A DNA stretch of 50,322 bases, taken from positions 1 through 50,322 of the forward strand of contig CANQRX010000002.1 in NCBI GenBank assembly GCA_947626425.1, given 5' to 3'. Made by a program: the position numbers and the translations under genes. How positions within the stretch are numbered: position 1 is the first letter of the stretch; every line of letters starts with the position of its first letter. The notes under the pieces are model-generated. The model did no database searches. It saw only the letters and a program-made list of their open reading frames with translations, and was not told the origin of the DNA. Source of the stretch: an uncultured Bacilli bacterium. Lineage in GTDB: Bacteria > Bacillota_I > Bacilli_A > RF39 > UBA660. Of the stretch, positions 6,734 through 45,744 are shown piece after piece.

Positions 6734-7111
6734 AATTTTCACCTCTATAAATAGAATGTATTACTTTTAAAAATTTATACATAATAATAATGGTGATTAA
6801 AATGGAAAATAAATTAAAAGGATTCTGTTTTAATGATGAATTAGTTAAAGAACCAATTAGTAAAGATGACTATGTGGAAAAAATTATTAAAATGGAAAAA
6901 TTAAATTGTTTTAAAATATAAGGATCTTAATTAAGGAATATCCTTATTTTTTTATTCTAATTATTCGACAATTTACTTATCAAGCATATATTATAATGAA
7001 TTTTGAGGTGATTTTCTTGACATCAATTAAAAAAATGTTTAGCATAATAAGCATCTTTTCAAAGCCGAAAAAACATGTTAAGATTTAACTAGAATGGAGG
7101 TTGTGCTTGGT

Positions 7112-7612
7112 ATGGAAAAAAATAAAAAAGGAATATTTAATGTATTAGATTTAGCAAAATATTTGAATTTTTTACATAATGATTTATACGATAGAAATAT
7201 ATCTCCTTTAAAATTGCAAAAAGTTTTGTTCTTTTTATTTGGCGAATGGGGAGCTTTTATAAAAAATTCATCAGCAGATAATGATGGTAAGGATTTAGTA
7301 AATTATTCCATGTATTTGTTTGATAGTGATTTTGAAGCATGGGTTTATGGTCCCGTAGTAATTGAAGTTTATAAAAAATTTAATAATGAAACATTATCTG
7401 AGGAAGAGATTTTTAATAGCTTCGAAAAAAAATATGTTGGACATTTTATTAAAGATTTGTGTAAAGAGCTTTTTGAGTTAAGTGATTTTCGATTAGTCGA
7501 ATTATCTCATCAAAAAAAATGTTGGAAAAATAATTACAAAGCAGAGGATACTTTTCATAACAAAATTATAAATAAGGATGATATTATTCATGAATTTGCA
7601 GGGGAAATATAA
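7112..7612 (+). CDS. Panacea (DUF4065) domain protein, SocA/PanA-like antitoxin
   Basis: GGAGG RBS before ATG 7112. ISPLKLQKVLFFLFGEWGAF is the hallmark Panacea/DUF4065 motif. Confidence 0.7.
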   Translation: MEKNKKGIFNVLDLAKYLNFLHNDLYDRNISPLKLQKVLFFLFGEWGAFIKNSSADNDGKDLVNYSMYLFDSDFEAWVYGPVVIEVYKKFNNETLSEEEIFNSFEKKYVGHFIKDLCKELFELSDFRLVELSHQKKCWKNNYKAEDTFHNKIINKDDIIHEFAGEI

Positions 7613-12490: not shown

Positions 12491-13105
12491 ATGAAAACAA
12501 AACATAAAATTTTATTGGTATTACTTTCATTATCATTGATAGCTAGTTTATATGTAGTTCAATCTTATGCTTTATGGTCTTACACCGCCCCTCAAACTAC
12601 AACAAACAGTGTTAGTTCTGGATGCTTTAATATACAATATAGTGAAACAAGTGGTTCAAATTTAAGTTTAACAAAGTCTTATCCTATAAGCGACGCAGAT
12701 GCTATAAAAAAAGAAACTAATCCGTATACTTTTACAATAACGAATAAGTGTACAATAAATACTGCTTATACAGTTACTTTGAATGTTATGAAAGGGAGTA
12801 ATTTAAGTACGTCATTTATTAAATATGCGTTAGTTTCAGGTACTACGACTCCAACTGGAAAATTTCTTAGTAAAGCTCCAACTAATACAGATACTACTAA
12901 TTATGAAAATAGTGCTAATATTCTAAATTCATATAAAGTTGCAACTGGTGTACTAGCCAATAACGGCGCCCATACATTTAAGTTGTATTTATGGATTGAT
13001 GAAAGTGCAACTACGGCAATTGCAGGACAAAAATTTGAAGCCGCTGTTTATGTCAACAATGTTCCAACTACAAGTGCTGCATCTGGTCCAATTATGAGCC
13101 AGTAA
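12491..13105 (+). CDS. Secreted/anchored protein, paralog 1 of 3, with TasA/SipW-like signal end (QSYALW)
   Basis: AAGGGA RBS. N-terminus MKTKHKILLVLLSLSLIASLYVVQSYALWSY, then SGCF, SYPISD, PYTFTITNKC, FKLYLWIDESA and AAVYVNNVPT. It is homologous to 13334-13951, 14091-14768 and residues 1-195 of the 39851-41695 product. Confidence 0.75.
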   Translation: MKTKHKILLVLLSLSLIASLYVVQSYALWSYTAPQTTTNSVSSGCFNIQYSETSGSNLSLTKSYPISDADAIKKETNPYTFTITNKCTINTAYTVTLNVMKGSNLSTSFIKYALVSGTTTPTGKFLSKAPTNTDTTNYENSANILNSYKVATGVLANNGAHTFKLYLWIDESATTAIAGQKFEAAVYVNNVPTTSAASGPIMSQ

Positions 13106-13296: not shown

Positions 13297-13333
13297 GATG
13301 ATAATAGAGAGAAAATAGTAAGGGATGGGTTTC

Positions 13334-13951
13334 ATGAAAACAAAATATAAAATTTTATTGGTATTACTTTCATTATCATTAATAGCCAGCTTATATATAG
13401 CCCAGTCTTATGCTTTATGGTCTTATACTGCCCCTCAAACTTCTACCAATAGTGTCAATTCGGGCTGCTTTAATATTACTTATACAGATACAGGGAGTTC
13501 CTCATTAAATTTATTACATAGTTTTCCAATAAGTGATACGGACGCATTAAGAATAGAGAGTCCATATACTTTTACAATTACAAATAGTTGCTCAATTAAT
13601 ACGGAATATACTGTTACTTTAAATGTAATAAATACTAGTACTTTAGATGCTGCAAATATTAAGTATGCTTTGGTTCCAAATAATGATAGTAATCCTACCG
13701 CTGGGAAATTTCTTAGTAGTGCTCCAATTAATAGTGATACTAATAATTATGACGCCAAAAGTACTATTAAAACTTCCTATAAATTAGCTAGTGGTGTGTT
13801 AGCACAAAATGGAACTGCAAAATTTAAGTTATATCTGTGGATAAAAGAGGAAGCAACAGATTCCATAAAAGGGCAAACATTTACATCGGCAGTTTATGTC
13901 AACAATGTTCCAACTAATAAAGGTGTAACTGGACCAACTATGAGTCAATAA
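13334..13951 (+). CDS. Secreted/anchored protein, paralog 2 of 3 (QSYALW signal end)
   Basis: Start chosen at MKTKYKILL by analogy with the other copies and by RBS position. Same conserved blocks as paralog 1. Confidence 0.75.
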   Translation: MKTKYKILLVLLSLSLIASLYIAQSYALWSYTAPQTSTNSVNSGCFNITYTDTGSSSLNLLHSFPISDTDALRIESPYTFTITNSCSINTEYTVTLNVINTSTLDAANIKYALVPNNDSNPTAGKFLSSAPINSDTNNYDAKSTIKTSYKLASGVLAQNGTAKFKLYLWIKEEATDSIKGQTFTSAVYVNNVPTNKGVTGPTMSQ

Positions 13952-14090: not shown

Positions 14091-14768
14091 ATGAAAACAA
14101 AATATAAAATTTTATTAGGAATAATTTCTCTCGCGTTATTAGCTAGTTTATATATAGCTCAGTCTTATGCTTTATGGACTTTCACGGCCCCTCAAACTAC
14201 TACAAACAGTGTCAGTTCTGGTTGCTTTGATATAGAATACAGTGAAACAGCCAGTTCAACTTTGAATTTAACTCAGTCTTATCCTATAGATGACGCTCAA
14301 GCCTTAAGTAAAGAAACCCCATATACTTTTACAATTAAAAATAATTGTTCTATTAGTACTGAATATACTGTGACTTTAAATACATTAACTTCAAATACAT
14401 TAGATGATGCCAAAATTAAATATGCAATTGTGTCTGGAAGTAGCACTACTACAACTGGTAAAAAGTTATCTGAAGCCACGGCAAATGCTGATACTACAAA
14501 TTTTAATTTAGGTAGTACTTTAAAAAAATCTTATAAATTGGCTACAGGTGTATTAACGCAAAGTGGCTCTGTAACATTTAAGTTGTATTTATGGATCGAT
14601 GCTAGTGCCGGAAATGAAGTAATGAGTCAAAAATTTAATGCTGCTGTTTATGTTAACAATGTTCCAACTAATAAATCAGCAGCAAGTCCGACTATAAGTT
14701 CACCTAGTGTTGATGAAGGACCATCCTTTGAAGATGAAGTTCCTACTGATGAAAATGCTATTGAATAA
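14091..14768 (+). CDS. Secreted/anchored protein, paralog 3 of 3 (QSYALW signal end) with acidic C-terminal tail
   Basis: Same conserved blocks as paralogs 1 and 2, plus an extra SPSVDEGPSFEDEVPTDENAIE tail. Confidence 0.75.
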   Translation: MKTKYKILLGIISLALLASLYIAQSYALWTFTAPQTTTNSVSSGCFDIEYSETASSTLNLTQSYPIDDAQALSKETPYTFTIKNNCSISTEYTVTLNTLTSNTLDDAKIKYAIVSGSSTTTTGKKLSEATANADTTNFNLGSTLKKSYKLATGVLTQSGSVTFKLYLWIDASAGNEVMSQKFNAAVYVNNVPTNKSAASPTISSPSVDEGPSFEDEVPTDENAIE

Positions 14769-14885: not shown

Positions 14886-16520
14886 ATGAAATCAGTGTCA
14901 ATAGGAAACGATGATTTTAGTGATTTAATAAAAAGTAATAGTTATTATGTCGATAAAACTAATGCTATTGAAGAATTATTAAAAAATAATAAAAAAGTAG
15001 TCTTATATACAAGACCGCGAAGATTTGGTAAAAGTTTGTTTATATCAATGTTAGAACATTTTTTTGACATTGATGAATCTTGTAGTAACAAAGATTTATT
15101 TAAAGGATTATATATATCCAAAAGTCCATATTTTAGTGAGTTTGGTAGTTTCCCAGTTATTAGTTTAACTTTTAAAAATTTAAAACAAAATACTTATGAA
15201 AGTGTTTATGCTCAGTTTGTTGCTATAATAAAACAAATATATGTTGATAAAAATTATGTTTTTGAGGTTTTAGATGATTCCGAAAAAGATTTATTCAACG
15301 GAATCAAAAATGGAACAGTTACGATTGAAGAATATAAATTATCAATATTTCTTTTATCAAGATGGTTAGAAAGGTATCATCAAAGGAAAGTTGTAATTTT
15401 AATTGATGAATACGATGTTCCAATTCAATGTGGTTATTTAAAAGGCTTTTACGATGAAGTAATAGATTTAATCAGCAGTGTTTTTTCGGCTTGTTTAAAA
15501 ACCAATAATTCTTTAAAAATGGGAATATTAACTGGTGTTTTACGAGTAAGTAAAGAATCAATTTTCAGTGATTTAAATAATTTAAAAGTATATGATATGA
15601 TGAGCTTTCATTATCTTGAATCATTTGGGTTTACGGAATCAGAAACAAAAGAATTATTAGAATATTATGGTTTAGAATTAACAAGTGATGTTAAAAATTT
15701 TTATGATGGATATAGTATGAATGGAGTAAGTATATATAATCCTTGGAGTATTCTAAATTATGCTGATGAAAAAATTTTAAATTCGTATTGGATAAATACT
15801 TCGGGAAATGATTTAATAATAAAATTATTAAGTGAAACAAGTAAAGAAGTTAAAATCGACATTGAAAAATTAGCAACTGGAGAAAGTATTTCATTTACCT
15901 ATAATGATAAATTAACCTATTTAGATTTGGATAAAAAACAAAGTAAAAATAATATTTTAAACTTAATGTATGCTTCAGGTTATTTAACAATCGATCAAGT
16001 TATTGATGAAGCATTTCGAAAGTACAGCGTAAAGATACCTAATGAAGAAGTAAAAATATTTATATTAAAAATTATTAGTTATGCTTATGCAAATGATGTA
16101 ATAGATGAATACGTTAGTAATTTTGGGGAGGCTTTAAAAAATGATAATAAAGAAGAAATGGAAAAAAGTTTAAATAAAATGTTAGAAAGTATGTCATATA
16201 TGGTAACTTGCGACAACTTTTATCATGGATATATGTTAGGAATTTTTCAAGGCTTTTTAAGAGGACAATATATTGTCAAATCAAACCGAGAAGGAGGATT
16301 AGGAAGATTTGATGTATTAATTGAGAAAAAAGATCGAAATTTTGGCTGTATTTTTGAATTTAAAATAGCTGAGAAAGAAAGTGAAATGGAAAATTTAGCA
16401 AGCCTTGCTAAAAAGCAAATGAAAGAAAAAGAATATTACAAAGAATTACAATTAGACAAAGTTGAAAATATAAAAGAATATGCTTTAGTATTTTATGAAA
16501 AGAAATGTGTTGTTAGGTAA
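14886..16520 (+). CDS. Predicted AAA-ATPase (PF09820-like) with C-terminal PD-(D/E)XK nuclease domain (PDDEXK_9-like), copy 1
   Basis: N-terminus IGNDDFSDLIKSNSYYVDKT..YTRPRRFGKSLFISMLEHFF is the signature of the predicted AAA-ATPase family. C-terminus GGLGRFDVLIE..IFEFK fits a PD-(D/E)XK core. Confidence 0.8.
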   Translation: MKSVSIGNDDFSDLIKSNSYYVDKTNAIEELLKNNKKVVLYTRPRRFGKSLFISMLEHFFDIDESCSNKDLFKGLYISKSPYFSEFGSFPVISLTFKNLKQNTYESVYAQFVAIIKQIYVDKNYVFEVLDDSEKDLFNGIKNGTVTIEEYKLSIFLLSRWLERYHQRKVVILIDEYDVPIQCGYLKGFYDEVIDLISSVFSACLKTNNSLKMGILTGVLRVSKESIFSDLNNLKVYDMMSFHYLESFGFTESETKELLEYYGLELTSDVKNFYDGYSMNGVSIYNPWSILNYADEKILNSYWINTSGNDLIIKLLSETSKEVKIDIEKLATGESISFTYNDKLTYLDLDKKQSKNNILNLMYASGYLTIDQVIDEAFRKYSVKIPNEEVKIFILKIISYAYANDVIDEYVSNFGEALKNDNKEEMEKSLNKMLESMSYMVTCDNFYHGYMLGIFQGFLRGQYIVKSNREGGLGRFDVLIEKKDRNFGCIFEFKIAEKESEMENLASLAKKQMKEKEYYKELQLDKVENIKEYALVFYEKKCVVR

Positions 16521-16535
16521 AGGAGGGATAATATC

Positions 16536-18170
16536 ATGAAATCAGTGTCAATAGGAAACGATGATTTTAGTGATTTAATAAAAAGTAATAGTTATTATGT
16601 CGATAAAACTAATGCTATTGAAGAATTATTAAAAAATAATAAAAAAGTAGTCTTATATACAAGACCGCGAAGATTTGGTAAAAGTTTGTTTATATCAATG
16701 TTAGAACATTTTTTTGACATTGATGAATCTTGTAGTAACAAAGATTTATTTAAAGGATTATATATATCCAAAAGTCCATATTTTAGTGAGTTTGGAAGTT
16801 TCCCAGTTATTAGTTTAACTTTTAAAAATTTAAAACAAAATACTTATGATGAAGTATATGAACAGTTTGTGATGCTTATAGAAAAACTATATACAGAAAA
16901 AAGTTATGTTTTAGAAGTATTAGATGAAGATGAAAAAAATAAATTCAAAAGAATAAAAAGTGGTCAAGCAAAATATAGTGAATATCAAGATTCGTTATTT
17001 CAATTATCAATATGGTTAGAAAGGTATCATCAAAAGAAAGTTGTAATTTTAATTGATGAATATGATGCTCCTATTCAAAGTGGTTATTTGAATGGCTTTT
17101 ATGATAAGGTAATAAATTTAATTAGAAGTGTTTTTTCAGCTTGTTTAAAAACCAATAAATCTTTAAAGATGGGAGTATTAACCGGAGTTTTACGAGTAAG
17201 TAAAGAATCAATTTTCAGTGATTTAAATAATTTAAAGGTATATGATATGATGAGCCTTCATTATCTTGAATCATTTGGTTTTACGGAAAAGGAAACTAAA
17301 GAATTATTAGAATATTATGGTTTAGAATTAACAAGTGATGTTAAAAATTTTTATGATGGATATAGTATGAATGGAGTAAGTATATATAATCCTTGGAGTA
17401 TTCTAAATTATGCTGATGAAAAAATTTTAAATTCGTATTGGATAAATACTTCGGGAAATGATTTAATAATAAAATTATTAAGTGAAACAAGTAAAGAAGT
17501 TAAAATCGACATTGAAAAATTAGCAACTGGAGAAAGTATTTCATTTACCTATAATGATAAATTAACCTATTTAGATTTGGATAAAAAACAAAGTAAAAAT
17601 AATATTTTAAACTTAATGTATGCTTCAGGTTATTTAACAATCGATCAAGTTATTGATGAAGCATTTCGAAAGTACAGCGTAAAGATACCTAATGAAGAAG
17701 TAAAAATATTTATATTAAAAATTATTAGTTATGCTTATGCAAATGATGTAATAGATGAATACGTTAGTAATTTTGGGGAGGCTTTAAAAAATGATAATAA
17801 AGAAGAAATGGAAAAAAGTTTAAATAAAATGTTAGAAAGTATGTCATATATGGTAACTTGCGACAACTTTTATCATGGATATATGTTAGGAATTTTTCAA
17901 GGCTTTTTAAGAGGACAATATATTGTCAAATCAAACCGAGAAGGAGGATTAGGAAGATTTGATGTATTAATTGAGAAAAAAGATCGAAATTTTGGCTGTA
18001 TTTTTGAATTTAAAATAGCTGAGAAAGAAAGTGAAATGGAAAATTTAGCAAGCCTTGCTAAAAAGCAAATGAAAGAAAAAGAATATTACAAAGAATTACA
18101 ATTAGACAAAGTTGAAAATATAAAAGAATATGCTTTAGTATTTTATGAAAAGAAATGTGTTGTTAGGTAA
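16536..18170 (+). CDS. Predicted AAA-ATPase with C-terminal PD-(D/E)XK domain, copy 2
   Basis: Same length (544 aa) and motifs as copy 1. Residues 1-104 and about 256-544 are identical to copy 1. Confidence 0.8.
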   Translation: MKSVSIGNDDFSDLIKSNSYYVDKTNAIEELLKNNKKVVLYTRPRRFGKSLFISMLEHFFDIDESCSNKDLFKGLYISKSPYFSEFGSFPVISLTFKNLKQNTYDEVYEQFVMLIEKLYTEKSYVLEVLDEDEKNKFKRIKSGQAKYSEYQDSLFQLSIWLERYHQKKVVILIDEYDAPIQSGYLNGFYDKVINLIRSVFSACLKTNKSLKMGVLTGVLRVSKESIFSDLNNLKVYDMMSLHYLESFGFTEKETKELLEYYGLELTSDVKNFYDGYSMNGVSIYNPWSILNYADEKILNSYWINTSGNDLIIKLLSETSKEVKIDIEKLATGESISFTYNDKLTYLDLDKKQSKNNILNLMYASGYLTIDQVIDEAFRKYSVKIPNEEVKIFILKIISYAYANDVIDEYVSNFGEALKNDNKEEMEKSLNKMLESMSYMVTCDNFYHGYMLGIFQGFLRGQYIVKSNREGGLGRFDVLIEKKDRNFGCIFEFKIAEKESEMENLASLAKKQMKEKEYYKELQLDKVENIKEYALVFYEKKCVVR

Positions 18171-20348: not shown

Positions 20349-21206
20349 ATGATTGATTTTACAAATGCTAAAGAAGAAATGAATAGTTATAAAGGTTCAG
20401 AAAAAAAGAAAACTTTAATTTATGACAATAAAAGATATTTAGTGAAATTTCCTGATCCAATAAGAAAAAAAAATAAAAATATTTCTTACATAAATAACGC
20501 TTTTTCTGAATATGTTGGAAGTAATATATTTAAGCTGGTGGGTTTTGAAACCCAAAATACAATATTGGGAGTTTATAAATATAATGATAAAGTTAAAATT
20601 GTATGTGCTTGTGAAGATTTTACTGATAAAAATCATGAATTATATGAGTTTGAAAATTTAGTTTTAAGTAGCAATCCTGATAAACAAATTAAAACAGAAT
20701 TAAAAGATATATTAGAAGTAATAGAAAATAGCAAATTATTAAATAAAAAAGATATAATTGAAAAATTTTGGGATATGTTTGTGATTGATAGTTTAATTGG
20801 CAATCCAGATCGCCATAATGGAAATTGGGGTTTTTTAGTAAACAAGCAAACAAATGATATTAAATTTTCACCAATTTTTGATTGTGGTTCGTGTTTAAAT
20901 CCGATGTTAGAAGATGAAGAATTACAAAAACTAACTGAAACAGAATTAAAAAATATAGCTATTAATTGTTATTCATGTTTTACTCAAAATAATAAAAAAA
21001 TAAATTATTTTTTATATATTAAAAGTTTAAAAAATGAAAATTGCAATAAAGCTATTACTCGTAATTTTAAAAAAATTGATATAAATGAAATTAACAATTT
21101 TTTAGATAATATGGATTTAATATCAAATGTTAGAAAAGAATTTTATAAAAAAATTATTAATTTAAGATATGAGATATTAAAAAAAGTTTTTAATGTTTTA
21201 AATTAA
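20349..21206 (+). CDS. HipA-C-like kinase domain protein
   Basis: DSLIGNPDRHNGNWGFL and SPIFDCGSCL resemble the HipA/CtkA catalytic loop (D-x-H-x-x-N) and the following D-x-G region. No adjacent HipB-like gene. Confidence 0.5.
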   Translation: MIDFTNAKEEMNSYKGSEKKKTLIYDNKRYLVKFPDPIRKKNKNISYINNAFSEYVGSNIFKLVGFETQNTILGVYKYNDKVKIVCACEDFTDKNHELYEFENLVLSSNPDKQIKTELKDILEVIENSKLLNKKDIIEKFWDMFVIDSLIGNPDRHNGNWGFLVNKQTNDIKFSPIFDCGSCLNPMLEDEELQKLTETELKNIAINCYSCFTQNNKKINYFLYIKSLKNENCNKAITRNFKKIDINEINNFLDNMDLISNVRKEFYKKIINLRYEILKKVFNVLN

Positions 21207-21221
21207 ACATAATAAAACATC

Positions 21222-21250
21222 TTGAAAAAAGAAAGTTATTAACTTATAAT
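21222..21250 (+). promoter_or_regulatory. Sigma-A-type promoter TTGAAA-N17-TATAAT
   Basis: Read directly. Nearly identical to 46466-46494. Confidence 0.6.
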
Positions 21251-21280
21251 TTTAATAGAAAATAGGAAGGAAAAAGATAA

Positions 21281-22661
21281 ATGAAAATAGAAAATTATAA
21301 GTTAAAAACAAGTAAAAAAGCAAAAATATTGATTGGAAGTATGGTAGGAATAATGGCTCTAGGGGGGGGGGTATCTACTAAATAAAAGTTTAGGAAAATA
21401 CCAAGTCGAACAAAGTTTTCCCATAATGAATGGGAAAATTCAAGCAAACAGTGGTGATGTTTCAATCATTGCTATTAAAGTTGATGGAGCTGTAGTAGAT
21501 GAAATTCCAGCTAAAGGTTCAGGAAAATATTTTGAAAGTGCGGAATGTTCAAATGGAGCTACGGGATCATGGGATCGAACGAATTGGCAATTTTTATTAA
21601 ATACAACCAAAAAAACCAAATGTACATTAAATTTTACAACAACAAAAAGTACAACTGGTGAACAAAGTGGTGCAAGTAAAATGGAAGATTTATTATCTCA
21701 AGAAGAAGATAAAGGATCAGGAATAACTATTGTCAGTGATGATAATAACATTAGATATATTGGTCAAAATCCTAGTAACTATATTTATTTTAATTGTAAA
21801 GATAGTACAACTCAAAACGCCGAAAATTGTGAAACATGGCGAATAATAGGATTAATGGATGGAATAAAAACCAAAGCCGGAAAAACGGAAAGATTGTTAA
21901 AAATCATAAGAGAAAAATTACCTGTTTCTTTAAGTTGGGACTCATCTGCTTCTAGTGTAAATCAAGGCTATGGAGTAAATGAATGGAGTCAAGCAGATTT
22001 AATGACTGTCTTAAATGGCGATTATTTTAAAGGCCAAAAAGGAACTGATAAATGTTATAGTAGTTCTGGCGTATCAACAACAGACTGTCCAGATTGGATC
22101 CAGTATGGTTTAAAAAAATCAGCCCAAGATATGATCGAAGAAGTGGTTTGGAATACGGGAACGGCCGCAGTAACAGAAAACACTTGGGAAAAAGGAAATA
22201 TGCCAGTAGTTCAATATATATGGGAACGAAGTGATTTTACAGGAAAGCAATGTAATGGTGGAAGTTATTGTAACGACGATGTTCAAAGACAAACCACATG
22301 GGAAGGCAAAGTAGGTTTGATGTATCCATCGGACTATGGTTATGCCACCGATGGTGGGAAAGACCAAGTGAAAAGAATGCAATGTTTATATACACCATTA
22401 TATGATTGGAATGATAACAGTAATTGTTATAGTAATGATTGGCTATATGATAGTCAAAATTATCAATGGACAATGACTCCTGCGCCGTATTCTTCGTATG
22501 CTAGCGCTGTGTTCATTGTCCACGCAATCGGGCGTGTCTACTACCGCAATGCCTACAATGCTAACGCGGCTCGCCCCGTCGTTTATTTAAAGTCTTCGGT
22601 AAAAATTACTGGGGGGACAGGCTCTGATTCTGATCCATTTCAATTAAAATTAGAAGAATAA
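21281..22661 (+). CDS. Phase-variable surface protein with C-terminal lectin-like domain; currently frameshifted (OFF) at a G10 tract
   Basis: ATG 21281 encodes MKIENYKLKTSKKAKILIGSMVGIMALGGG, then stops at 21383-21385. With G9, the frame continues YLLNKSLGKYQVEQSFPIMNGKIQ.. into ORF 21426-22661. The C-terminal domain (WRIIGL, YPSDYGYAT, RPVVYLKS) is shared with 39851-41695 and 46537-47938. Confidence 0.7.
21362..21371 (+). repeat. Homopolymeric G10 tract inside signal-anchor codons
   Basis: Counted directly as 10 consecutive G in a roughly 30% GC genome. It encodes the GGG at the end of the TM helix. Confidence 0.9.
22478..22583 (+). other. DGR variable-region-like segment (GC-rich, A-poor) at the 3' end of 21281-22661
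   Basis: About 56% G+C by hand count. AAY/TAY codons are interspersed with A-free codons (..cgc aat gcc tac aat gct aac gcg gct cgc ccc gtc gtt). Confidence 0.45.
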
Positions 22662-27401: not shown

Positions 27402-30400
27402 GTGATGAATGTGAAAAAAATTGGTTTGTTGATAATAATTAGTTTATTAAGCATTAATGTTGTTAATGCAGCAAAAGTAAGCGATTTAGATTACTATGAC
27501 AGAGAAGAAGAAAAATACAAATTAACAGCTGATGGCTTCAGCGCTGAATCTTCAACTTTAGAAAATGATTATTTAAAACCCGGTAGTCGAATATTAACAA
27601 AATATGACGCTTATTTAAAAGATAAAAATATAGGAGCATTTTTTTGTATATCTCCTTCTAAACCACATGGCGCAACGTATACAATAAAAAGCCAAATTGA
27701 TATCGATTCAACGAGTAAATCCCAAAAAAAAGCTTTCTATGCGGCTTTACTTAAGGCCTATCAAGAATTTATCTCGAGAGGTTTTATAAAAACTAGTACC
27801 AAAAATTATGGTGATCGAACTCGACAACTTATTACTTTGGTGTACCGTTGGATTGCTAGCTACTATGGATATTTGGATACCGATTATGCCCGTGGGGGTG
27901 TTTCTGAAGATAACTATGTTATATACACATACAGTAAACGCAAAAGTTGGGGAAGTAAAAATTGGAAAGATGATAATGGTGATGGCCTAGCGACAGTTGC
28001 TAGAGATATACTTGCTAATGCAATTCGTGTTGGTAATAAAGTAAAAAACGGTAAAACAATCAGAGAATTAGCTAATAAAGGGGAACTTTGGGATATTAAT
28101 TTTAATGTAACTGCTACCGTTTTAGATAATACAGACAAAAGCAAAGTTAAAATTCAACTAGACATTGTTCCTAAAGGAGCTACGAAAGGAACAGATATAA
28201 ATTACGACGATTTTAAAGTTGAGTGTGATTATGATTTTGAGTGTAGTAAATTTAAAATGACAGGTGATATTAAAGTTAATGGAAAAAAAGGTAAAAGATT
28301 TACTTTAACCGTAAATACTAAAAATGGTCGAACAAGTGCTGCCGAAAAAGCTGGTAAACCGTATGGAATAACTATTAAAACAAATTATAATGATATTCGC
28401 GATGGGGCATTTCTTTATGAAATGACACCAGCTAGTAAATATGTTCAAGAAATGCTTTTAATTTTATATTTTCGTCCTGATTTTGAAATTATTTCCACAG
28501 AAACTCCTAGTTGGGAAGACAAATGCTACTGTCAACGTAATAGTAAAGGAAAATTGACAGGACGTTATGAATATAAAAAATATACCGAAAGTAAGGTTAT
28601 TACAGGAACAATAGATTTATTAGATACCGAGAAAGCCGAAAAATATGAATGCCCTCCACCAGAAGATTGTGGTGTAAAAACAGTTTGCCAGTGTGATTAC
28701 GATGAAAATAACGTGTTCACTAATCAATATGCCGTTACTTATAAAAGTGAAAAAGACACTAAGGTTGAAAAATTCTCAGCAACGGATACTGAAAAAAGTG
28801 AAAAATATGCCTGCCCTCCAGCAGATTCATGTGTTAAAACTACTTGCAGTTGTCAATTTGACGATAATGTCTATACTGGAAATTATGTAGTAGAGCAAAC
28901 TGAAAACGGCGAAACAACGGAAATTATTGTTTCCGCTAATGATGTAAAAGCAAGTGAATATGGCTGTCCGCCAGTTACTTATTGTAGCGAATGTTCTTGT
29001 GAAACTGACACTAAAGGTAATTTTACAGGAAATTATTTATATTATAAAAATGGTAATTTATTTGAAAAATTTAAATTAGATGATGCGACTAAAGCTACTA
29101 AATATAGTTGTCCACCAGCCACTGATTGTGCAAATGATTGTTTTTGTCAAGTAGATGAAAATAATGAATATACCGAAAAATATCAATACAATGGTTTTGA
29201 AGATGGACGTTTAGTAACCGAAGTATTTGATTTTGATGATCCACGAGCTGAAAACTATAATTGCCCAAGTAGTAAAACATGTCATCCCCAAAGAAAAGAA
29301 TGTACTTATGAAGATGATGGAACATATTATGGTAAAAATGGTGTTGAAGTAACCAAAGATGAATATATTGCTCAATGTGTAACTAGTTGTAAAACTGAAC
29401 CTACTGGTGATGGAAATACCAAGTATTATTGCAACAGTGACAGCGAACTTATAAGTGGACCAGAATGTAGTAAAGAAGAATACGAAGAAGATTGTATATG
29501 TACACCTATGAAAGAAAAATGTGATAACGGAGATACGGCTTCTTGTGAAGAATACCAAGATAAATGTCTTCCAATTCCTTCGGATTGCAGTGCCAAAGTA
29601 ACTATTCCCGATGAGTGTGCTAATTTTGATGCAGACACCATGTTAGAAGCTGAAATTGATGATGTAAATCTTGATCCTGGTTGTGGTAAAGATAACTCAA
29701 TCAAAAAATGTGTAGTTAATGGAACCGATCAAGCTGGCAACTCTTATTTACATTTTAAAAATAATTATTGTACTGTTTGGTGTAAAGAAAAATATAATTT
29801 TACGTTACCAACAGCAAGACATACTAGAAGTGGAGGTTACTTTACATTAAGTGCTAAAATAACTGGAGAAAGAACATGCTATGCTACAGGAAGTGATGAC
29901 ACAACAACTCCAATTGATGAGCCAAGATTTCATAGAGATTTAGAGGATGCCGAAGCGGCATTACAACTGGCTTACGAAAATTATATAAGTGCCAAAAATA
30001 ATAAAGAAAACTCGGAAAGAACGTTAGAAAATTTAAATAATCAAACAACAAGTATCGAAAATGCAGTATCATATGCTCAATCAGAACTTACAATTGCCCA
30101 ATCATTATATTCAAGTGCTCGATCAGCATTGTCAAGTGCCGAATCAGAATTATCAAGTGCCGAATCAGAATTATCAAGTGCTCAAAGTGCTTTAAATTCA
30201 ATACCTGAAGGTGATGAAGCTGCAAGGACAAGTGCGTTAGCTAATGTTTCTAGAGCCAGTATTAGAGTTTCAAACGCACAAACTGCTGTTCACATAGCAC
30301 AAGCTGATATTTCTAGTGCCGCATCAAGAGCACAAAGTGCCCAAAATTCTCTAAGCGATGCCATCACTGCCAGAGATAATCATTATATAAGCATAACGAA

Positions 30401-31745
30401 TACGGAAAGAAATATTGAACTCGCAAAACAAGAGATGGCAAAAAATGAAGCCTCAATGAACGACTTAAATTCCAAAATTCAAACCTTTTTCAATGAATAT
30501 AATAGTTGTGCAAGTTGGGAAGTAGAATTTAAGTTTGATCCAAAAATTGATTATTGGTATAACGAAAAATATATGGATATTCTAACCACAGGTAATAGCG
30601 GAACATTTGAAGCAGATGGAACAACATCGCTAGATAGCACTGAAGAATATTGTTCCGGAATTGCTGATGAAAATTTTGAATGTGAAAATGGCCAAACAAG
30701 CCAAGTAAAATATAAAGATCAAAATTATGTATATTGTACAATCGAAGGGTGTGTAACTAAAAGTTCTAGATTAAATGATGTAAAGTGGATTCGTAAAAAT
30801 GAAAAATCTTCTAATTCTTATCGACCTCATGCCAACTTTTCAACATCTACTGGTTTTGGAACAATAAAAAGAAATGCCCCAGAGTGTAATGGAAACGACT
30901 GTTTATTTACGAAGTTGCCTATTAATGCTTTACCAGTTGAATTATCAACCGGCCGTGGAGTATTCCCATTTGTTTTGAAATTTAGAGATATCGGTCAATA
31001 TGCTAGTGGTTCTTTAGGAAGATTACTTGGAGCAAGTCAAAGTGTTGTAACAAGCCTATCAAGAGCTGATTCAATGTGTTCAACTCCTGGTTATAAAGCA
31101 ACAACAAGTACCTCATATGTATGTGAATATATTAATGACTGCTCTGAGTGTGAAGCTGATTGTATCAATTGTGGTAGCACCCCATATGACCCTGGTGACC
31201 CATATGACCCACCTAACATACCCGAGACTGAATGTAAAGGTCAAACATGTCCTTTAACTTGCTCATCGTGTATATATGATGGTGGTAAAACACAATTTTC
31301 ATTCCGGACAGTTTCCGTAAATAATGTTTTCCCAAATTCATGCAATAAGGCCCTAAGCAACTGTCGAAAAGAAGGATATAACTGGGATACTAATAATCCA
31401 AAAGCTAAAAAAACCTTAGAAGAAATTGAGGAAAAAGGCGAGTCAGCATATCAAGAACCAGAATATTCCTATACCCTTAATCCAGGTCAATTGCAAAATA
31501 TAAGAAAATATAATGATAAAGCCGGTACATATTTAAATACAACAATTCCTGATTCCGGCGATACAGCCTTAAAATGTGAAAGATTAGATATCAATGGAAA
31601 ATTATATAATGTAAAATGTACAAGTTCCTTTTTAGACCAAAATTCTCAAACTTATTTTAGCGAACAAAAAAGAAACACAACCTTTACATTATGGGATACT
31701 AATAATGTTAATGACTTAATTGGCATCGGACCATCTTGGAAATAA
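27402..31745 (+). CDS. Giant secreted Cys-rich protein 1 (1447 aa), putative surface adhesin/fibre component
   Basis: Signal peptide KKIGLLIIISLLSINVVNA/AK. The N-terminal domain of about 370 aa is shared with 32071-35589. Five modules of about 50 aa (C-x-C ... C-P-P-x-x-x-C) lie at about 28524-29300. There is a Ser/Ala-rich helical insert, and a Cys-rich conserved C-terminal region ending GIGPSWK. No LPXTG and no C-terminal TM. The real start may be ATG 27405 or GTG 27411 (AGGTGA at 27400-27405). Confidence 0.8.
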   Translation: MMNVKKIGLLIIISLLSINVVNAAKVSDLDYYDREEEKYKLTADGFSAESSTLENDYLKPGSRILTKYDAYLKDKNIGAFFCISPSKPHGATYTIKSQIDIDSTSKSQKKAFYAALLKAYQEFISRGFIKTSTKNYGDRTRQLITLVYRWIASYYGYLDTDYARGGVSEDNYVIYTYSKRKSWGSKNWKDDNGDGLATVARDILANAIRVGNKVKNGKTIRELANKGELWDINFNVTATVLDNTDKSKVKIQLDIVPKGATKGTDINYDDFKVECDYDFECSKFKMTGDIKVNGKKGKRFTLTVNTKNGRTSAAEKAGKPYGITIKTNYNDIRDGAFLYEMTPASKYVQEMLLILYFRPDFEIISTETPSWEDKCYCQRNSKGKLTGRYEYKKYTESKVITGTIDLLDTEKAEKYECPPPEDCGVKTVCQCDYDENNVFTNQYAVTYKSEKDTKVEKFSATDTEKSEKYACPPADSCVKTTCSCQFDDNVYTGNYVVEQTENGETTEIIVSANDVKASEYGCPPVTYCSECSCETDTKGNFTGNYLYYKNGNLFEKFKLDDATKATKYSCPPATDCANDCFCQVDENNEYTEKYQYNGFEDGRLVTEVFDFDDPRAENYNCPSSKTCHPQRKECTYEDDGTYYGKNGVEVTKDEYIAQCVTSCKTEPTGDGNTKYYCNSDSELISGPECSKEEYEEDCICTPMKEKCDNGDTASCEEYQDKCLPIPSDCSAKVTIPDECANFDADTMLEAEIDDVNLDPGCGKDNSIKKCVVNGTDQAGNSYLHFKNNYCTVWCKEKYNFTLPTARHTRSGGYFTLSAKITGERTCYATGSDDTTTPIDEPRFHRDLEDAEAALQLAYENYISAKNNKENSERTLENLNNQTTSIENAVSYAQSELTIAQSLYSSARSALSSAESELSSAESELSSAQSALNSIPEGDEAARTSALANVSRASIRVSNAQTAVHIAQADISSAASRAQSAQNSLSDAITARDNHYISITNTERNIELAKQEMAKNEASMNDLNSKIQTFFNEYNSCASWEVEFKFDPKIDYWYNEKYMDILTTGNSGTFEADGTTSLDSTEEYCSGIADENFECENGQTSQVKYKDQNYVYCTIEGCVTKSSRLNDVKWIRKNEKSSNSYRPHANFSTSTGFGTIKRNAPECNGNDCLFTKLPINALPVELSTGRGVFPFVLKFRDIGQYASGSLGRLLGASQSVVTSLSRADSMCSTPGYKATTSTSYVCEYINDCSECEADCINCGSTPYDPGDPYDPPNIPETECKGQTCPLTCSSCIYDGGKTQFSFRTVSVNNVFPNSCNKALSNCRKEGYNWDTNNPKAKKTLEEIEEKGESAYQEPEYSYTLNPGQLQNIRKYNDKAGTYLNTTIPDSGDTALKCERLDINGKLYNVKCTSSFLDQNSQTYFSEQKRNTTFTLWDTNNVNDLIGIGPSWK

Positions 31746-32070: not shown

Positions 32071-35000
32071 ATGAAAAAGAAGTTAACAATATTTTTGTTA
32101 AGTTTAAGTTTATTTTTGGGTGTTTGTTTAAAAAATACCCAAGCTGCCGAGGTCTATGATCGGGTTAAAAGTGGATACAAAATATCTGGAACATTTACCA
32201 ATACAGGTATTAGTTATTTTCTCGAAGTAGGTTATAAATATGGTGCTCCTAGTACCGGTAGTTATAATGCTTATAAAAATGGCATTGATGGAATATTTAT
32301 ATGTATTTCACCAGATAAAGATGCTGGAACCTATTATAAAGCGGTTACCGAAGTTAACCCAGATTCACCATCTGTTAAAAATAAAAATACGCGTGCTTTT
32401 TATGTTGCTGTAATTAAGGCATATCAAATTATGGTTGACAGTGGGGAAATTACAACTAAAAAAAGTAATGGTCGCTATTCATATACTGACCGTCAAAAAT
32501 TCTTATTAATTGTTCGTTGGTTAGCAAGTAAATATGGATTATTAGATACTAGCCACCCAAGTAGTTCAACAACTCCGGCTGGTAACTATAAAAAATATGT
32601 TTATTCTGATAGAAGCAAATATTGGAATACGTCCAATTCAACTATTAAAAGAGCTGAAGCTGTAACTAAAGCTGCGATAAAAGTTGGAGATAAAATACTA
32701 AAAGGTTCAACTTACCAAAAACTTATTGATAATGGTGATGTTTGGGGCGCTAGATGGGAAAGTACTGCTCCAACTGTCGAAACCAATGCAAAGAAACCAA
32801 ATTTAGTAACTATAAAGTTTGATGTCAAAGCTAAAAACAGTATTCAAAAAATAAATTACAAAGATTTTAAAGTAGAATGTAATTATGGTTATAAGTGTAA
32901 AGATGTAACAATTAAGACTAAAAAGGAAACTACGAAAAAAGGTAAAGAAAAACAATACATAAGTGTAAGTATTGTTGTCGATACAACTAATGGTAAAAAA
33001 CATAAAGCTCAAAATGCTGGGCAACCATATGGAGTTGTTGTTAAAACTAATTTTTATGATTACCATGATTCATCTCATTTATTCTTATTTAATCCAACAG
33101 TTAGTACAAAACAAAAGATGTTACTAATTAGAGATTATAACCAATCAATGCAAATTGTTACTAAGTTTGTTCCAGAATGGGAAGATATTTGTTCTTGCCA
33201 AAAAGATAGCAACGGCAATTACACTGGAAAATATGAGTTGAAAACAATTGTTAATGGTGTTGTAAAAACCGAAGAATTTGGTTTTAACGATAAAAAAGCT
33301 AAAAAATATGATTGTCCTGATTCTTCAAAATGTGTTAGTGAACCTAATCCATCATGTCAAACACCAGATGAAAGTGATGATGGAAATTATCATTGTAAAG
33401 ATGGTGAAGTTTGTGACGAAGAAAAATACAAAGAAGACTGTGATACAGGTAAGAAACCATCATGTCAAACACCAGATGAAAGCGATGACGGAAAATATCA
33501 CTGCAAAGATGGCGAAGTTTGTGACGAAGAAAAATACAAAGAAGACTGTGATACAGGTAAGAAACCATCATGTCAAACACCAGATGAAAGCGATGACGGA
33601 AAATATCACTGCAAAGATGGCGAAGTTTGTGACGAAGAAAAATACAAAGAAGACTGTGATACAGGTAAGAAACCATCATGTCAAATACCAAGTGAAAGTG
33701 ATGATGGAAATTATCATTGTAAAGATGGTGAAGTTTGTGACAAAGATGAATATGAAGATGACTGTTTATGCCCTGAATTAAAGGATAAATGTGAAGAAAA
33801 TCCTGATGATCCTGCTTGCGGTGAATACAAGGAAAAATGTCCAAATTGTTCAGCAACGGTTACAGTTCCAAACAATTGTAATGATTTTGATGCTGAATCA
33901 ACAGTAGACGGTGTTATTAGCGATATTAATGAAACAGCAAGTAGTTGTAATCCAACAGCTAACTTAGTTAAAACCTGTGTAATTGATAAAAAGGATCAAG
34001 CTGGTTCAAGTTTTGAAGCAACCAATGAAATAAAAAATAACCCTTATTGTAAAGTATGGTGTAAAGAAAAATATGAATTCTCATTACCAACAGCAAAATA
34101 TACTCAAAGTGGTGGTTATTTCCAATTAACAATGAAAATAGCTGCTAAAAGAGATTGTTATGTAAGTGCAGCAGATGACCCAGATAATCCAATTGATAAG
34201 ACAAAATTCTTAAGTGATTTAAGTACTGCTGAAACTGCGGTTAAAAATGCTTATAACGAATATAGTAAATTAAACAATGATGCTAATTTATCTGCTTTAA
34301 ATTCTGCTAAAGAAAAAGTGGAAAGTATTATTAGTGATTTTAATAGTTGTTCAAATGGTTGGAGTAATAATTTCGTTTATAACCCAGAAATTGAATATGA
34401 TTATTACAATGACTATTTAACTAATAGTAAAGGAACATTTGAAAAAATTGAAGGAACCGATACAATGACTAGTGAAGATACTTATTGCTCTGGAGATACT
34501 GATGAAAGTTACAATTGTAAATCAGGTGCATCAAACACTATGCAAACTGAAACTCAAAGCTATGAAAATTGTGATGCTCAAGGATGTAGTGTTAAAACTG
34601 CTCAAATAAGTACAGCTAAATGGATTCAAAAAACTAAAATAGTTGCCAATGCTCAATATCAACCAAAAGAAAAATTCTCAACTTATACAAGTTATGGTAT
34701 AATAAAAATAGATGAACCTAGATGTAATGGTAAAGATTGCTTATATACAAGACTTCCAGATAGTTCATTACCTGTTCAATTAACAACTGGTAAAGGAGTA
34801 TTCCCATTCACATTTACATTTAAAAATATTGGTCAATCAAATACTGATAATAATTTAGGTCGTCTAATTGGTTCTGATAACAGTATTGTAAAAGCCTTTA
34901 ATGAATTACCTGATGAATACCGTTGTTCAAAAGACAATGCAACTGATGCATATGGTGGATATGTTTGTCATTACATTAACAACTGTGATGGATGTGACTT

Positions 35001-35589
35001 TGAATGTGTTGGTGACGATTGTAAGTTTGAAGATGAAGAAGAAAATTGCGAAGGTCCAACTTGTCCATTAACATGTGTAAACTGTGTATTTGATGGTCAA
35101 GAAGCAACTTATACCTTTAGAGCTGTGTCCCTTGCTAATTTATTCCCAAATGAATGTGATGAAAATTCTGATAGTAGTGAATGTCGTACAACCGGCTATA
35201 ACTGGGACGTTGGTGAAAAAGCTAGTTTAACTAAGAAAGCAATCCAAGAAGAAGGTAATAATATCTATATTGAACCAGAATATTCATATACAATGAATTC
35301 CTCACAACTAAGTGCTATTAGAGAATATAATCAAAAAGTTGGTTCATATTCTAATACCACAACTGGAGCATTCTTTAACAACGAACCAGCATTGAAATGC
35401 AATGTTGTTGAAATAAATGGAATTCAATATGAGGTTGAATGTTTATCTACATTCTTATCAAACGGAAATGGTAAATACTTTACCGAAAATAAACGAAATA
35501 CTGAATTTGAACTATGGTCAAATACAGAATATTGCTTAAGCGGTAGCTGTTTAGATCGTAAAAAAGGCGTAGGACCGTCTTGGAAGTAG
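32071..35589 (+). CDS. Giant secreted Cys-rich protein 2 (1172 aa), paralog of 27402-31745
   Basis: GGGGGA RBS and signal peptide (..CLKNTQA/AEV). Shares the N-terminal domain, one C-x-C...C-P module and the entire Cys-rich C-terminal region (..YCKVWCKEKYEFSLPTAKYTQSGGYF.., ends GVGPSWK) with protein 1. Contains four 36-aa tandem repeats. Confidence 0.8.
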   Translation: MKKKLTIFLLSLSLFLGVCLKNTQAAEVYDRVKSGYKISGTFTNTGISYFLEVGYKYGAPSTGSYNAYKNGIDGIFICISPDKDAGTYYKAVTEVNPDSPSVKNKNTRAFYVAVIKAYQIMVDSGEITTKKSNGRYSYTDRQKFLLIVRWLASKYGLLDTSHPSSSTTPAGNYKKYVYSDRSKYWNTSNSTIKRAEAVTKAAIKVGDKILKGSTYQKLIDNGDVWGARWESTAPTVETNAKKPNLVTIKFDVKAKNSIQKINYKDFKVECNYGYKCKDVTIKTKKETTKKGKEKQYISVSIVVDTTNGKKHKAQNAGQPYGVVVKTNFYDYHDSSHLFLFNPTVSTKQKMLLIRDYNQSMQIVTKFVPEWEDICSCQKDSNGNYTGKYELKTIVNGVVKTEEFGFNDKKAKKYDCPDSSKCVSEPNPSCQTPDESDDGNYHCKDGEVCDEEKYKEDCDTGKKPSCQTPDESDDGKYHCKDGEVCDEEKYKEDCDTGKKPSCQTPDESDDGKYHCKDGEVCDEEKYKEDCDTGKKPSCQIPSESDDGNYHCKDGEVCDKDEYEDDCLCPELKDKCEENPDDPACGEYKEKCPNCSATVTVPNNCNDFDAESTVDGVISDINETASSCNPTANLVKTCVIDKKDQAGSSFEATNEIKNNPYCKVWCKEKYEFSLPTAKYTQSGGYFQLTMKIAAKRDCYVSAADDPDNPIDKTKFLSDLSTAETAVKNAYNEYSKLNNDANLSALNSAKEKVESIISDFNSCSNGWSNNFVYNPEIEYDYYNDYLTNSKGTFEKIEGTDTMTSEDTYCSGDTDESYNCKSGASNTMQTETQSYENCDAQGCSVKTAQISTAKWIQKTKIVANAQYQPKEKFSTYTSYGIIKIDEPRCNGKDCLYTRLPDSSLPVQLTTGKGVFPFTFTFKNIGQSNTDNNLGRLIGSDNSIVKAFNELPDEYRCSKDNATDAYGGYVCHYINNCDGCDFECVGDDCKFEDEEENCEGPTCPLTCVNCVFDGQEATYTFRAVSLANLFPNECDENSDSSECRTTGYNWDVGEKASLTKKAIQEEGNNIYIEPEYSYTMNSSQLSAIREYNQKVGSYSNTTTGAFFNNEPALKCNVVEINGIQYEVECLSTFLSNGNGKYFTENKRNTEFELWSNTEYCLSGSCLDRKKGVGPSWK
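33349..33780 (+). repeat. In-frame tandem repeat, 4 x 108 bp (36 aa: PSCQTPDESDDG-N/K-YHCKDGEVCDEEKYKEDCDTGKK)
   Basis: Units start at 33349, 33457, 33565 and 33673. Units 2 and 3 are identical. Units 1 and 4 share a different set of synonymous variants, and unit 4 diverges at its 3' end. Confidence 0.9.
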
Positions 35590-36080: not shown

Positions 36081-36914
36081 ATGGGAAATTTATTATCAAA
36101 ACTTAAAAGGTTTTTAGAAAATAAAAATACAGTAACAATTTTATGTGTAATCGCGGGAATTGCAGTTTTGTATATTGGTTATAATTGGCGGGTTAATTCA
36201 GCTATTAGTCCGACATCTATTCCTTATGCAAAAACTGCTTTACCTTCACGTCATGTTATAACATCAGATGATATTGGTTATATGGAAGTTTCTAGTGCGG
36301 TCGTTAATCGTAGTTCTAATATTATTAGAAATTCCAATTTAATTATTGGTAAAGAGGTAATGTATGGTACTACCATTCCTCAAAATAGTTTTTTCTATGA
36401 TAGTGCAATTACCGATTCTAATTTACAACCAGATGATGTTATGGCTGATATTCCAAACGGCTATACATTGTTTACTTTATCAGTAGACTTACATACTACT
36501 TATGGTAACTCTATTTATCCTGGAAATTATATTGATTTATGGTTTAAGGGTGTAGATGATTACAACAAAATAATGTATACCAACTTAATAAGAAGTATTA
36601 AAGTTTCCGATGTTCGGGATAGTAATGGTCAATCTGTTTTTGAAACATCTATGGAAAAAAGAACACCATCTGAATTATTATTTGCAGTTCCTGATGATAT
36701 GTATTCTTTGCTTAAAAAAGCTCAATACATTGGTGGGGTAGAAATAATACCAGTTCCAAGAAACCGTAATTATACTGCCAATCCTGGAGAAACAGAAGTT
36801 GCTAGTGATTATGTAAAAGAATTTATTTTATCAAAAACCGCAATTATTCCAGATGAAAATATAAGTACAAACACAAATGATAATAACGATGAAAACAATA
36901 ATGTAGAAGAATAA
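36081..36914 (+). CDS. CpaB/RcpC-like Flp pilus assembly protein (SAF-domain protein)
   Basis: AGGAGG RBS and an N-terminal TM helix. This is followed by a SAF-like segment (IPYAKTALPSRHVITSDDIGYMEV...IIGKEVMYGTTIPQNSFF). It lies immediately upstream of a CpaF/TadA-type ATPase. Confidence 0.5.
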   Translation: MGNLLSKLKRFLENKNTVTILCVIAGIAVLYIGYNWRVNSAISPTSIPYAKTALPSRHVITSDDIGYMEVSSAVVNRSSNIIRNSNLIIGKEVMYGTTIPQNSFFYDSAITDSNLQPDDVMADIPNGYTLFTLSVDLHTTYGNSIYPGNYIDLWFKGVDDYNKIMYTNLIRSIKVSDVRDSNGQSVFETSMEKRTPSELLFAVPDDMYSLLKKAQYIGGVEIIPVPRNRNYTANPGETEVASDYVKEFILSKTAIIPDENISTNTNDNNDENNNVEE

Positions 36915-36933
36915 CAAGAAAGGGGTGCCGGCC

Positions 36934-38061: not shown

Positions 38062-38077
38062 GAAGGAGAGAGGACCA

Positions 38078-39794: not shown

Positions 39795-39826
39795 TTGACA
39801 AACGGGGGGGGGGTATATGATAAAAT
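39795..39826 (+). promoter_or_regulatory. Putative promoter whose -35/-10 spacer contains a G10 tract
   Basis: TTGACA (39795-39800), then AAC plus G10. Candidate -10 elements are TATGAT (39816-39821, spacer 15) or extended TG-A-TAAAAT (39818-39826, spacer 20). Confidence 0.5.
39804..39813 (+). repeat. Homopolymeric G10 tract (intergenic)
   Basis: Counted directly. The in-frame stop at 39827-39829 shows it is not part of the 39851 ORF. Confidence 0.9.
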
Positions 39827-44063: not shown

Positions 44064-44384
44064 TTAGTTTAAAAAAGAAATTTTAGTTATTTGTTCAAAA
44101 TAAAGGGAAGTATGATCATCAAAATATATTTGTTTGTTTTGAAAATTAAAGTGATCAATAATTCCTAATTTTCGATAAAACTGATTTTTCCAAAAATAAA
44201 TTATTTGGATTTTTTCTTTCGTGTGATAAGCTTTTTGAATATTTTGTTCAAGATTTTCTTTGTCATCTTCACTTAAAATCGATAATTTTTGTTGATTTCT
44301 TTTTTCTTTTAATTCCTGTAATACTTCGCTTGCAGGTACTACGGCATTAAAGGGTTGCCACTTAACTTCGCCACGATTACTCAT
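44064..44384 (-). CDS. YolD-like protein
   Basis: AAAGGTGG RBS. MSNRGEVKWQPFNAV.. and its size and position downstream of a UmuC-like polymerase match the Bacillus yolD/yqzH arrangement. Confidence 0.7.
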   Translation of the reverse strand: MSNRGEVKWQPFNAVVPASEVLQELKEKRNQQKLSILSEDDKENLEQNIQKAYHTKEKIQIIYFWKNQFYRKLGIIDHFNFQNKQIYFDDHTSLYFEQITKISFLN

Positions 44385-45639: not shown

Positions 45640-45744
45640 TAAAAACACCTCCCAAACTTTTGTTCAATAACATTATAACAAAATTAGAAGGAAATACAAT
45701 TGACAAAAATTAACAATTTTGGGAAGATAAAACAGGTGAAGAAA

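Follow-up and report, generated by a model that had tools for sequence, protein, structure and literature searches.

The stretch of DNA analysed here, hereafter the window, comprises positions 1 to 50,322 of contig CANQRX010000002.1 (assembly GCA_947626425.1) from an uncultured bacterium of the Bacilli. A direct reading and a run scan of the window both give exactly ten G residues at 21362-21371 on the forward strand, near the 5' end of a gene for a putative surface protein that we call locus 1. It is probable (about 0.75) that this G10 tract is a slipped-strand, or simple-sequence-repeat, phase-variation switch, and the window probably contains at least three such contingency loci, controlling paralogues of one surface-protein family. 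An earlier reading of the same DNA (the original prediction) had proposed a slipped-strand ON/OFF switch with the assembled gene in the OFF phase. This proposal is supported by the presence of three G10 tracts, which all sit on one paralogous surface-protein family and thereby form the signature of contingency loci. Its single-locus account holds for locus 1 but falls short of what is in fact a multi-locus system that includes a promoter-region tract; the two further G10 tracts, at 39804 and 46618, were absent from it.

The G10 tract of locus 1

The tract lies within the glycine codons that close the signal-anchor helix of a short leader. Translation from ATG 21281 in the G10 phase gives MKIENYKLKTSKKAKILIGSMVGIMALGGGVSTK and stops at 21383-21385 after 34 amino acids (aa). 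This leader open reading frame (ORF; 21281-21385, +) has a K-rich N-region followed by a hydrophobic signal-anchor helix of 18 residues, and a lipobox cysteine is missing, the leader (MKIENYKLKTSKKAKILIGSMVGIMALGGGYLLNKSLGKYQ) being free of cysteine. The same 34-aa peptide, identical in sequence, has been called on four further ENA contigs. The mature part (21372-22661, +) is in the +1 frame relative to the leader and consists of an 18-codon linker, YLLNKSLGKYQVEQSFPI, and the 411-aa ORF called from ATG 21426 to 22661. When the tract was replaced in silico by G8 to G13, a single open frame through both parts arose only at G9 (459 aa) and G12 (460 aa); at G8, G10, G11 and G13 translation terminated after a few codons. 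The junction peptide of the ON form would read ..GIMALGGGYLLNK / SLGKYQVEQSFPIMNGK, the OFF peptide would end in ..GGGVSTK, and a frame-locked version of the tract would be GGAGGTGGA. The position of the ten G in the glycine codons, the 34-aa product and the opening of the frame at G9 or G12 had all been put forward in the original prediction, and the count, the translated frame and the tract swaps agree with it.

The signals for expression were found ahead of the leader. A promoter scan identified TTGAAA, a 17-nucleotide (nt) spacer and TATAAT at 21222-21250 (+), with 11 of 12 consensus matches, and a Shine-Dalgarno-like element, AGGAAGGA, was read from the sequence at 21264-21271 (+), 9 nt 5' of ATG 21281. 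This element is conserved in the related loci L008-L014 and L017. No Shine-Dalgarno element could be read before ATG 21426. The frame of the 411-aa ORF is open back to 21363, being preceded by TAG at 21360-21362, and between 21363 and 21426 it holds no ATG, GTG or TTG start. The protein that would start at ATG 21426 begins with MNGKIQANSGD and has no hydrophobic segment, as expected from the earlier statement that it would be without an export signal. A role of the tract in a G-quadruplex was considered and rejected, as the G10 is isolated and has no other G runs nearby. Directly 5' of locus 1, at 20349-21206, lies a gene for a HipA_C-like kinase.

Sequence comparison indicates that the fused leader-linker-ORF protein is the real product, because homologues lacking the G run are contiguous, two homologues with the run are in frame, and the leader varies mainly at third codon positions. 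Firstly, leader, linker and mature part of the homologue P0007, which has no G run, form one frame (..LGVGGVFILGNSFGKYQVEKSF..). Secondly, P0014, a full-length homologue with a G-run leader, is in frame and reads ..ALGGGYLLNR.. (..ALGGGYLLNRSLGKYQ..), exactly the predicted G9-type product, and the same applies to P0133, which is 78% identical to the second paralogue of the window described below and reads ..TLGGGYILSR.. (..TLGGGYILSRSYGKYQ..). The in-frame homologues P0014 and P0007 carry the linker, which is therefore taken as coding. Lastly, among the distinct recovered cassettes the variable sites of the leader fall on codon positions 1, 2 and 3 in the numbers 2, 2 and 13, and those of the post-tract linker, read in the ON frame, in the numbers 2, 3 and 6, a weaker bias. 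Read in the ON frame, the linker shows 24 synonymous and 18 non-synonymous pairwise codon changes; read in the OFF frame, it shows 14 and 28. All these counts are small though consistent. Where the tail of the OFF peptide varies (VSTK, VFTK, VYTK), the same changes are synonymous or conservative when read in the ON frame. Post-tract ORFs of ~375-420 aa are retained intact in 17 homologues of ~45-69% identity.

Two further G10 loci and the proposed mechanism

The GC content of the window is 28.9%, and G or C runs longer than six occur in its 50 kb only as the three G10 tracts at 21362-21371, 39804-39813 and 46618-46627, so that the earlier remark on the rarity of G runs was correct save for the other two tracts. 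In 100 dinucleotide-preserving shuffles of the window a G10 run did not arise once, against three observed. Each of the tracts lies on the coding strand, at the 5' end of its gene, and the three genes belong to one paralogous family.

Locus 2 repeats the arrangement of locus 1. It has the same promoter element (TTGAAA, 17 nt, TATAAT; 46466-46494, +), as found by alignment, followed by a paralogous leader ORF at 46537-46641 (+) that at G10 encodes 34 aa, MKIDNYKLKNRKKAKILIGSMAGIIALGGGVYIK before the stop (leader MKIDNYKLKNRKKAKILIGSMAGIIALGGG). The second coding G10 tract lies at 46618-46627 (+), and the mature part at 46628-47938 (+) is composed of the linker and a 418-aa ORF from ATG 46682 (46682-47938). 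In the same in silico swap of G8 to G13, the leader joined the 418-aa ORF only at G9 or G12, the lengths needed for the ON phase. From promoter to linker the cassettes of loci 1 and 2 share 83% of their DNA sequence; the leader DNA is 87% identical and the remaining gene bodies 53%.

At locus 3 the tract is non-coding. Paralogue 3 (39851-41695, +) encodes 614 aa with a signal-anchor of its own, and its C-terminal 400 aa are 60% identical to paralogue 2. The third G10 tract (39804-39813, +) lies 5' of this gene, between a candidate -35 box, TTGACA (39795-39800, +), and two overlapping -10-like boxes, which like the -35 box were read from the sequence: TATGAT (39816-39821, +), with a spacer of 15 nt at G10, and the extended -10 candidate TGaTAAAAT (39818-39826, +), with a spacer of 20 nt at G10. 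At G10 the promoter scan found no arrangement with a 16-18 nt spacer at this tract; by spacer arithmetic such a spacer would be reached at G11-13 for TATGAT or at G6-8 for TAAAAT. Tract 3 is probably a promoter-spacer switch whose length would set promoter strength. ATG 39817, 3 nt after the tract, was rejected as the start of paralogue 3, being out of frame with the ORF and inside the predicted -10 region. Three homologues of paralogue 3 (P0135, P0137 and P0140) have been called from the equivalent ATG, which adds M[IV]KL[IV]KxKVLx to their N-terminus. A start at this position is in frame in 3 of ~7 full-length homologues, near chance expectation, and the extension is probably spurious.

We propose the following mechanism. 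Loci 1 and 2 share a cassette of near-consensus promoter, ribosome-binding site, signal-anchor leader, G tract and 18-codon linker, which fronts divergent mature domains; for each of these a beta-rich part on the N-terminal side and an enlarged domain of C-type-lectin-like fold are predicted. Their transcription would probably be constitutive, with gating at translation by tract length: as single G residues are gained or lost at replication, G10 would give a dead-end peptide of 34 aa, and G9 or G12 a full-length protein that is membrane-anchored or exported. G9 or G12 would accordingly be ON and G10 or G11 OFF. At locus 3, the tract in the spacer between the -35 and -10 boxes would tune promoter strength rather than reading frame. 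The assembled consensus would then be OFF or low at all three loci. A G10 consensus might be expected from the pair ON=G9 and OFF=G10 combined with selection against expression in the gut, or if only one paralogue is expressed per cell. Host immunity or phage may act as the selective agent.

Tract length among homologues and competing explanations

The homologous position is G10 on nine distinct related contigs, fetched as ten loci of which L011 repeats the L008 contig, from the four ENA assemblies ERZ27249118, ERZ27249329, ERZ27249337 and ERZ27249603. L017 has G11 at the DNA level, with conserved flanks. Of the leader peptides in the database, ten distinct ones of 34 aa represent the G10 phase, on at least 19 contigs, and one of 33 aa, the peptide given by L017, represents the G11 phase (P0123, ..GGGGIY), in a census that is incomplete, since the leader-peptide search gave four clusters and missed P0014. 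Among close homologues, 17 proteins have been called from an internal Met and two are in frame over their full length. As far as these sequences tell, tract length variation exists among homologues and is heavily skewed to G10. A uniform G10 across strains, which the original prediction had named as speaking against a switch, was not found, as P0014 and P0133 are in frame and L017 has G11.

Several points weigh against phase variation as the explanation. Heritable, reversible switching within a population is a prediction from the assembled sequences. The G9 state of P0014 and P0133 is deduced from their protein sequences, and the promoter role of tract 3 from hexamer matches. No length variants were recovered upstream of paralogue 3 homologues, where L015 begins 24 nt 5' of the gene. 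Furthermore, the lengths are nearly uniform: three window tracts and nine contigs have G10, one has G11 and two would have G9. Simple neutral drift among lengths would be expected to spread more widely than this G10-dominated set. The four assemblies have neighbouring accessions and ~2.5-7x coverage (mostly ~3x); in view of their accessions, the related contigs may share a pipeline and a population and are then not independent. A repeated cassette could also lead a de Bruijn assembler to give several paralogues the tract length of the majority. The near-uniform G10 could reflect a mutational set-point, selection for OFF or shared sampling; recoding is a less likely cause. Apart from these points, the paralogue 3 homologue of a more distant species (L016) has no tract upstream.

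Recoding would mean that G10 is fixed and that the product arises either by slippage of RNA polymerase on C10, giving G9 and G12 mRNAs, or by a +1 ribosomal shift on GGG GGG GGG G. G10 would then be an actively maintained set-point across the family, at two coding tracts, one promoter tract and the homologues, with the product made through non-heritable slippage and expression either constitutively low or heterogeneous without being inherited. A Gram-positive commensal would then use programmed recoding at poly-G throughout a protein family, which we consider improbable. The striking uniformity of G10 across paralogues and assemblies fits it, as does the fact that G10 is the length that requires a frameshift at both coding loci. 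A 10-nt homopolymer is about as long as the RNA:DNA hybrid of transcription, and a tRNA-Gly should find a perfect pairing again after moving one base downstream, wherever in the run it sits. On physical grounds, a slip inside the G run might plausibly cause leakiness at a low level. Against this, the in-frame P0014 and P0133 and the G11 of L017 show that the DNA length changes, and recoding cannot account for the same tract in the non-coding position at locus 3. There is also no stimulatory RNA structure: the minimum free energy of the region 21330-21430 is -14.4 kcal/mol and that of its shuffles -17.5 on average (z = +1.0), so that the region folds no better than they do, which led us to reject hairpin-assisted slippage. 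A programmed +1 frameshift of the prfB type was rejected as well. The incoming frame reads GGG GUA UCU ACU AAA UAA, in which the AAA before the stop cannot re-pair at +1; in prfB a Shine-Dalgarno-like element stands ~3 nt upstream of the shift site, and the G run here ends 8 nt before the AAA, which is not a prfB-like spacing. Lastly, productive transcriptional slippage in bacteria is documented mostly at A/T runs (PMC1088944).

An assembly artefact, with a true tract of G9 or of mixed length and intact genes, carries a similarly low probability. The extra G would come from Illumina sequencing at G runs or from repeat collapse. G tracts are indeed hard for Illumina, as described for the 'G's end' effect (PMC9187656), and the cassette is multi-copy, so that graph simplification could spread one length; the low coverage of the related contigs given above points in the same direction. 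Six low-coverage SPAdes contigs (L005, L006, L007, L013, L014 and L015) break within tens of bases of the cassette or tract, which fits a multi-copy repeat, poor read-through of G runs or both, and care is needed when tract lengths are taken from assemblies of this kind. Random error at low coverage would nevertheless be expected to produce scattered lengths, yet G10 was found on nine distinct contigs. Collapse cannot unite tracts whose flanks differ, and G10 is still found in all of them: locus 2 reads ..atagccctaG10tatata.., the promoter tract reads ..acaaacG10tatatg.., and cta/tta variants occur. The same type of data yields the G11 of L017 and the in-frame P0014 and P0133. Runs of A8, A9 and T8 are free of error as judged by intact ORFs; of the A/T runs of at least eight in the window, 18 of 22 are contained in long ORFs that remain intact, and no gene is broken by any of them, so that the assembly is not generally indel-prone. 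A systematic +1 error at G runs is conceivable, but we see no mechanism for it.

Decay into pseudogenes, frameshifted at a mutation-prone run and heading to loss, is the least probable reading: the assembled gene and most of its close homologues are out of frame and the family is large and redundant, but the tract is the sole lesion, the post-tract ORFs stay open in the 17 diverged homologues, the variable sites of leader and linker are mainly third codon positions, promoter and Shine-Dalgarno-like element are conserved, and independent paralogues show an identical single-base defect at one and the same engineered-looking site.

Protein family, related systems and neighbouring genes

Pfam assigned no family to the three paralogues at its default threshold. 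The 411-aa ORF matches DUF6273 (PF19789) over residues 327-390 with 10.9 bits (E 0.41), below the gathering threshold of 23.5 bits, and distant relatives such as P0047 pass that threshold (28.2 bits); the relationship of the 411-aa protein to DUF6273 would be remote at best. The family is large, with >7000 database matches that come nearly all from gut metagenomes and metagenome-assembled genomes (MAGs). GTDB representative genomes contain only distant relatives, of 27-48% identity and without G tracts; the closest of these genomes are MAGs of uncultured Bacilli or Erysipelotrichaceae from rabbit and ruminant gut samples. Scans of the JGI metagenome and IMG/VR viral collections with cassette patterns gave no matches, and the lineage appears to be absent from both. 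Look-ups for exact protein matches to the 411-aa ORF and to P0014, P0003 and P0123 likewise gave no record.

The AlphaFold2 model of the 411-aa part, built from a 63-sequence alignment, has a predicted local distance difference test score (pLDDT) of 92.4 and a predicted template modelling score (pTM) of 0.90. In a Foldseek search with this model the sole significant PDB match was the immunoglobulin A (IgA) protease of Thomasclavelia ramosa (9qa6; E 2.7e-9, 329 columns, 16% identity), a gut bacterium of the Erysipelotrichales. Weak matches included C-type lectin-like domains, among them the C-terminal domain of Legionella Lcl, and a profile search of PDB sequences for the family returned nothing significant. 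The N-terminal domain of the T. ramosa protease is an enlarged C-type-lectin-like domain that is dispensable for catalysis, and its nearest structural neighbour is the Legionella Lcl domain (PMC12237041). An enlarged C-type-lectin-like domain in a surface protein of a gut bacterium would be what both have in common; the protein studied here differs in having neither a metalloprotease domain nor an HExxH motif. In our reading the modelled mature part, which the signal-anchor would carry, has a beta-rich domain on its N-terminal side and an enlarged lectin-like domain after it. The product would then be exposed at the surface, where a ligand-binding function is plausible.

By analogy, the pilin G tract of Bifidobacterium breve is the closest counterpart. 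In the sortase-dependent pilus loci of B. breve UCC2003 a G tract splits the Sec signal from the mature part and the reference genome is out of frame, and in vivo enrichment is reported for a tract length with which the pilus can apparently be expressed (PMC9187656). Like the bacterium studied here, B. breve is a Gram-positive gut commensal, and in bbr_0113 and bbr_1889 the first gene of a surface structure lies in two ORFs; the poly-G tract has ~11-12 residues, and expression is proposed to depend on an in-frame length present as a minority (PMC9187656). B. breve has a high GC content, whereas the present host has 29%, which makes its tract far more anomalous. Moreover, the product here would be a signal-anchored C-type-lectin-like protein instead of an LPXTG pilin, several paralogues share a promoter-leader cassette, a promoter-region tract is added, and the system is known from sequence alone. 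Campylobacter jejuni is similar in its GC content of ~30%, its multiple G8-G11 tracts on the coding strand of surface-structure genes and its ON/OFF switching by frameshift, and in this species tracts of G8-G9 are biased towards insertion and those of G10-G11 towards deletion, so that poly-G lengths gather at G9 and G10 (PMC3401435), a precedent for the excess of G10 seen here. It differs in phylum (Campylobacterota versus Bacilli) and in the genes concerned, which are unrelated, and no such shared 5' cassette is known from Campylobacter.

Homopolymers in promoter spacers act as switches in porA and opc of Neisseria meningitidis (poly-G/C) and in vlp of Mycoplasma hyorhinis (poly-A). The tract at 39804-39813 resembles these in lying between a -35 box and -10-like boxes, and, as a spacer switch, one or two bases more or less would decide whether the spacer falls within the optimum of 16-18 nt. 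Unlike at porA/opc and vlp, the extended -10 element TGaTAAAAT of locus 3 could allow expression that is independent of the -35 box. The Mycoplasma families vlp, vsp and vsa combine a conserved 5' expression and signal cassette with divergent mature regions, and their copies are switched individually. The multigene family described here likewise has a conserved 5' cassette before divergent mature regions. It differs from the Mycoplasma lipoproteins in lacking a lipobox or lipoprotein signal, and cell-wall genes are present (EzrA; FtsW and Amidase_3 in related contigs); the switch would be a coding poly-G instead of a promoter poly-A or a DNA inversion.

The mechanism itself is textbook, and the finding extends known biology without changing a concept. 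New are the lineage, an uncultured low-GC gut member of the Bacilli, the unannotated lectin-like family, and the proposed occurrence of both types of switch within one family. Poly-G switching is known mainly from Gram-negative pathogens and Bifidobacterium, to which a low-GC Gram-positive commensal with translational and probably also transcriptional poly-G switches is now added. At such loci gene callers yield cytoplasmic-looking proteins of ~411 aa from an internal Met and orphan 34-aa peptides, and this split affects at least 17 homologues and at least 11 leader peptides in the database. As a result, a large, uncharacterised family of putative lectin-like surface proteins from uncultured Bacilli of the gut is mis-annotated and its regulation goes unseen. 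The combination of promoter, signal-anchor and G tract makes contingency loci of these uncultured gut bacteria easy to recognise, and it points to candidate proteins that face the host, IgA or phage.

Several neighbouring genes deserve mention. Directly 5' of paralogue 3, at 36081-39762, are Tad or type II secretion-like genes, with a weak RcpC/CpaB-like match, a T2SSE ATPase (36925-38061) and two ORFs without a Pfam match. Some distant family members (P0045) have a prepilin N-methylation motif. From these two points, the family may be associated with pili or secretion. Three small ORFs in tandem (12491-13105, 13325-13951 and 14091-14768; 204-225 aa) resemble residues ~12-206 of paralogue 3, with 27-28% identity in tblastn. 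A gene for a Y-family (impB/mucB/samB) DNA polymerase is located at 44377-45648 (-), between the regions of locus 3 and locus 2. Elsewhere in the window, a gene with a SocA/Panacea antitoxin domain (7094-7612) is followed by an overlapping 190-aa ORF without a Pfam match, and for two very large ORFs, at 27402-31745 (1447 aa) and 32071-35589 (1172 aa), Pfam gave no match at E <= 0.001. The tandem duplicates at 14886-16520 and 16536-18170 encode 544 aa each, with AAA-ATPase_like and PDDEXK_9 domains.

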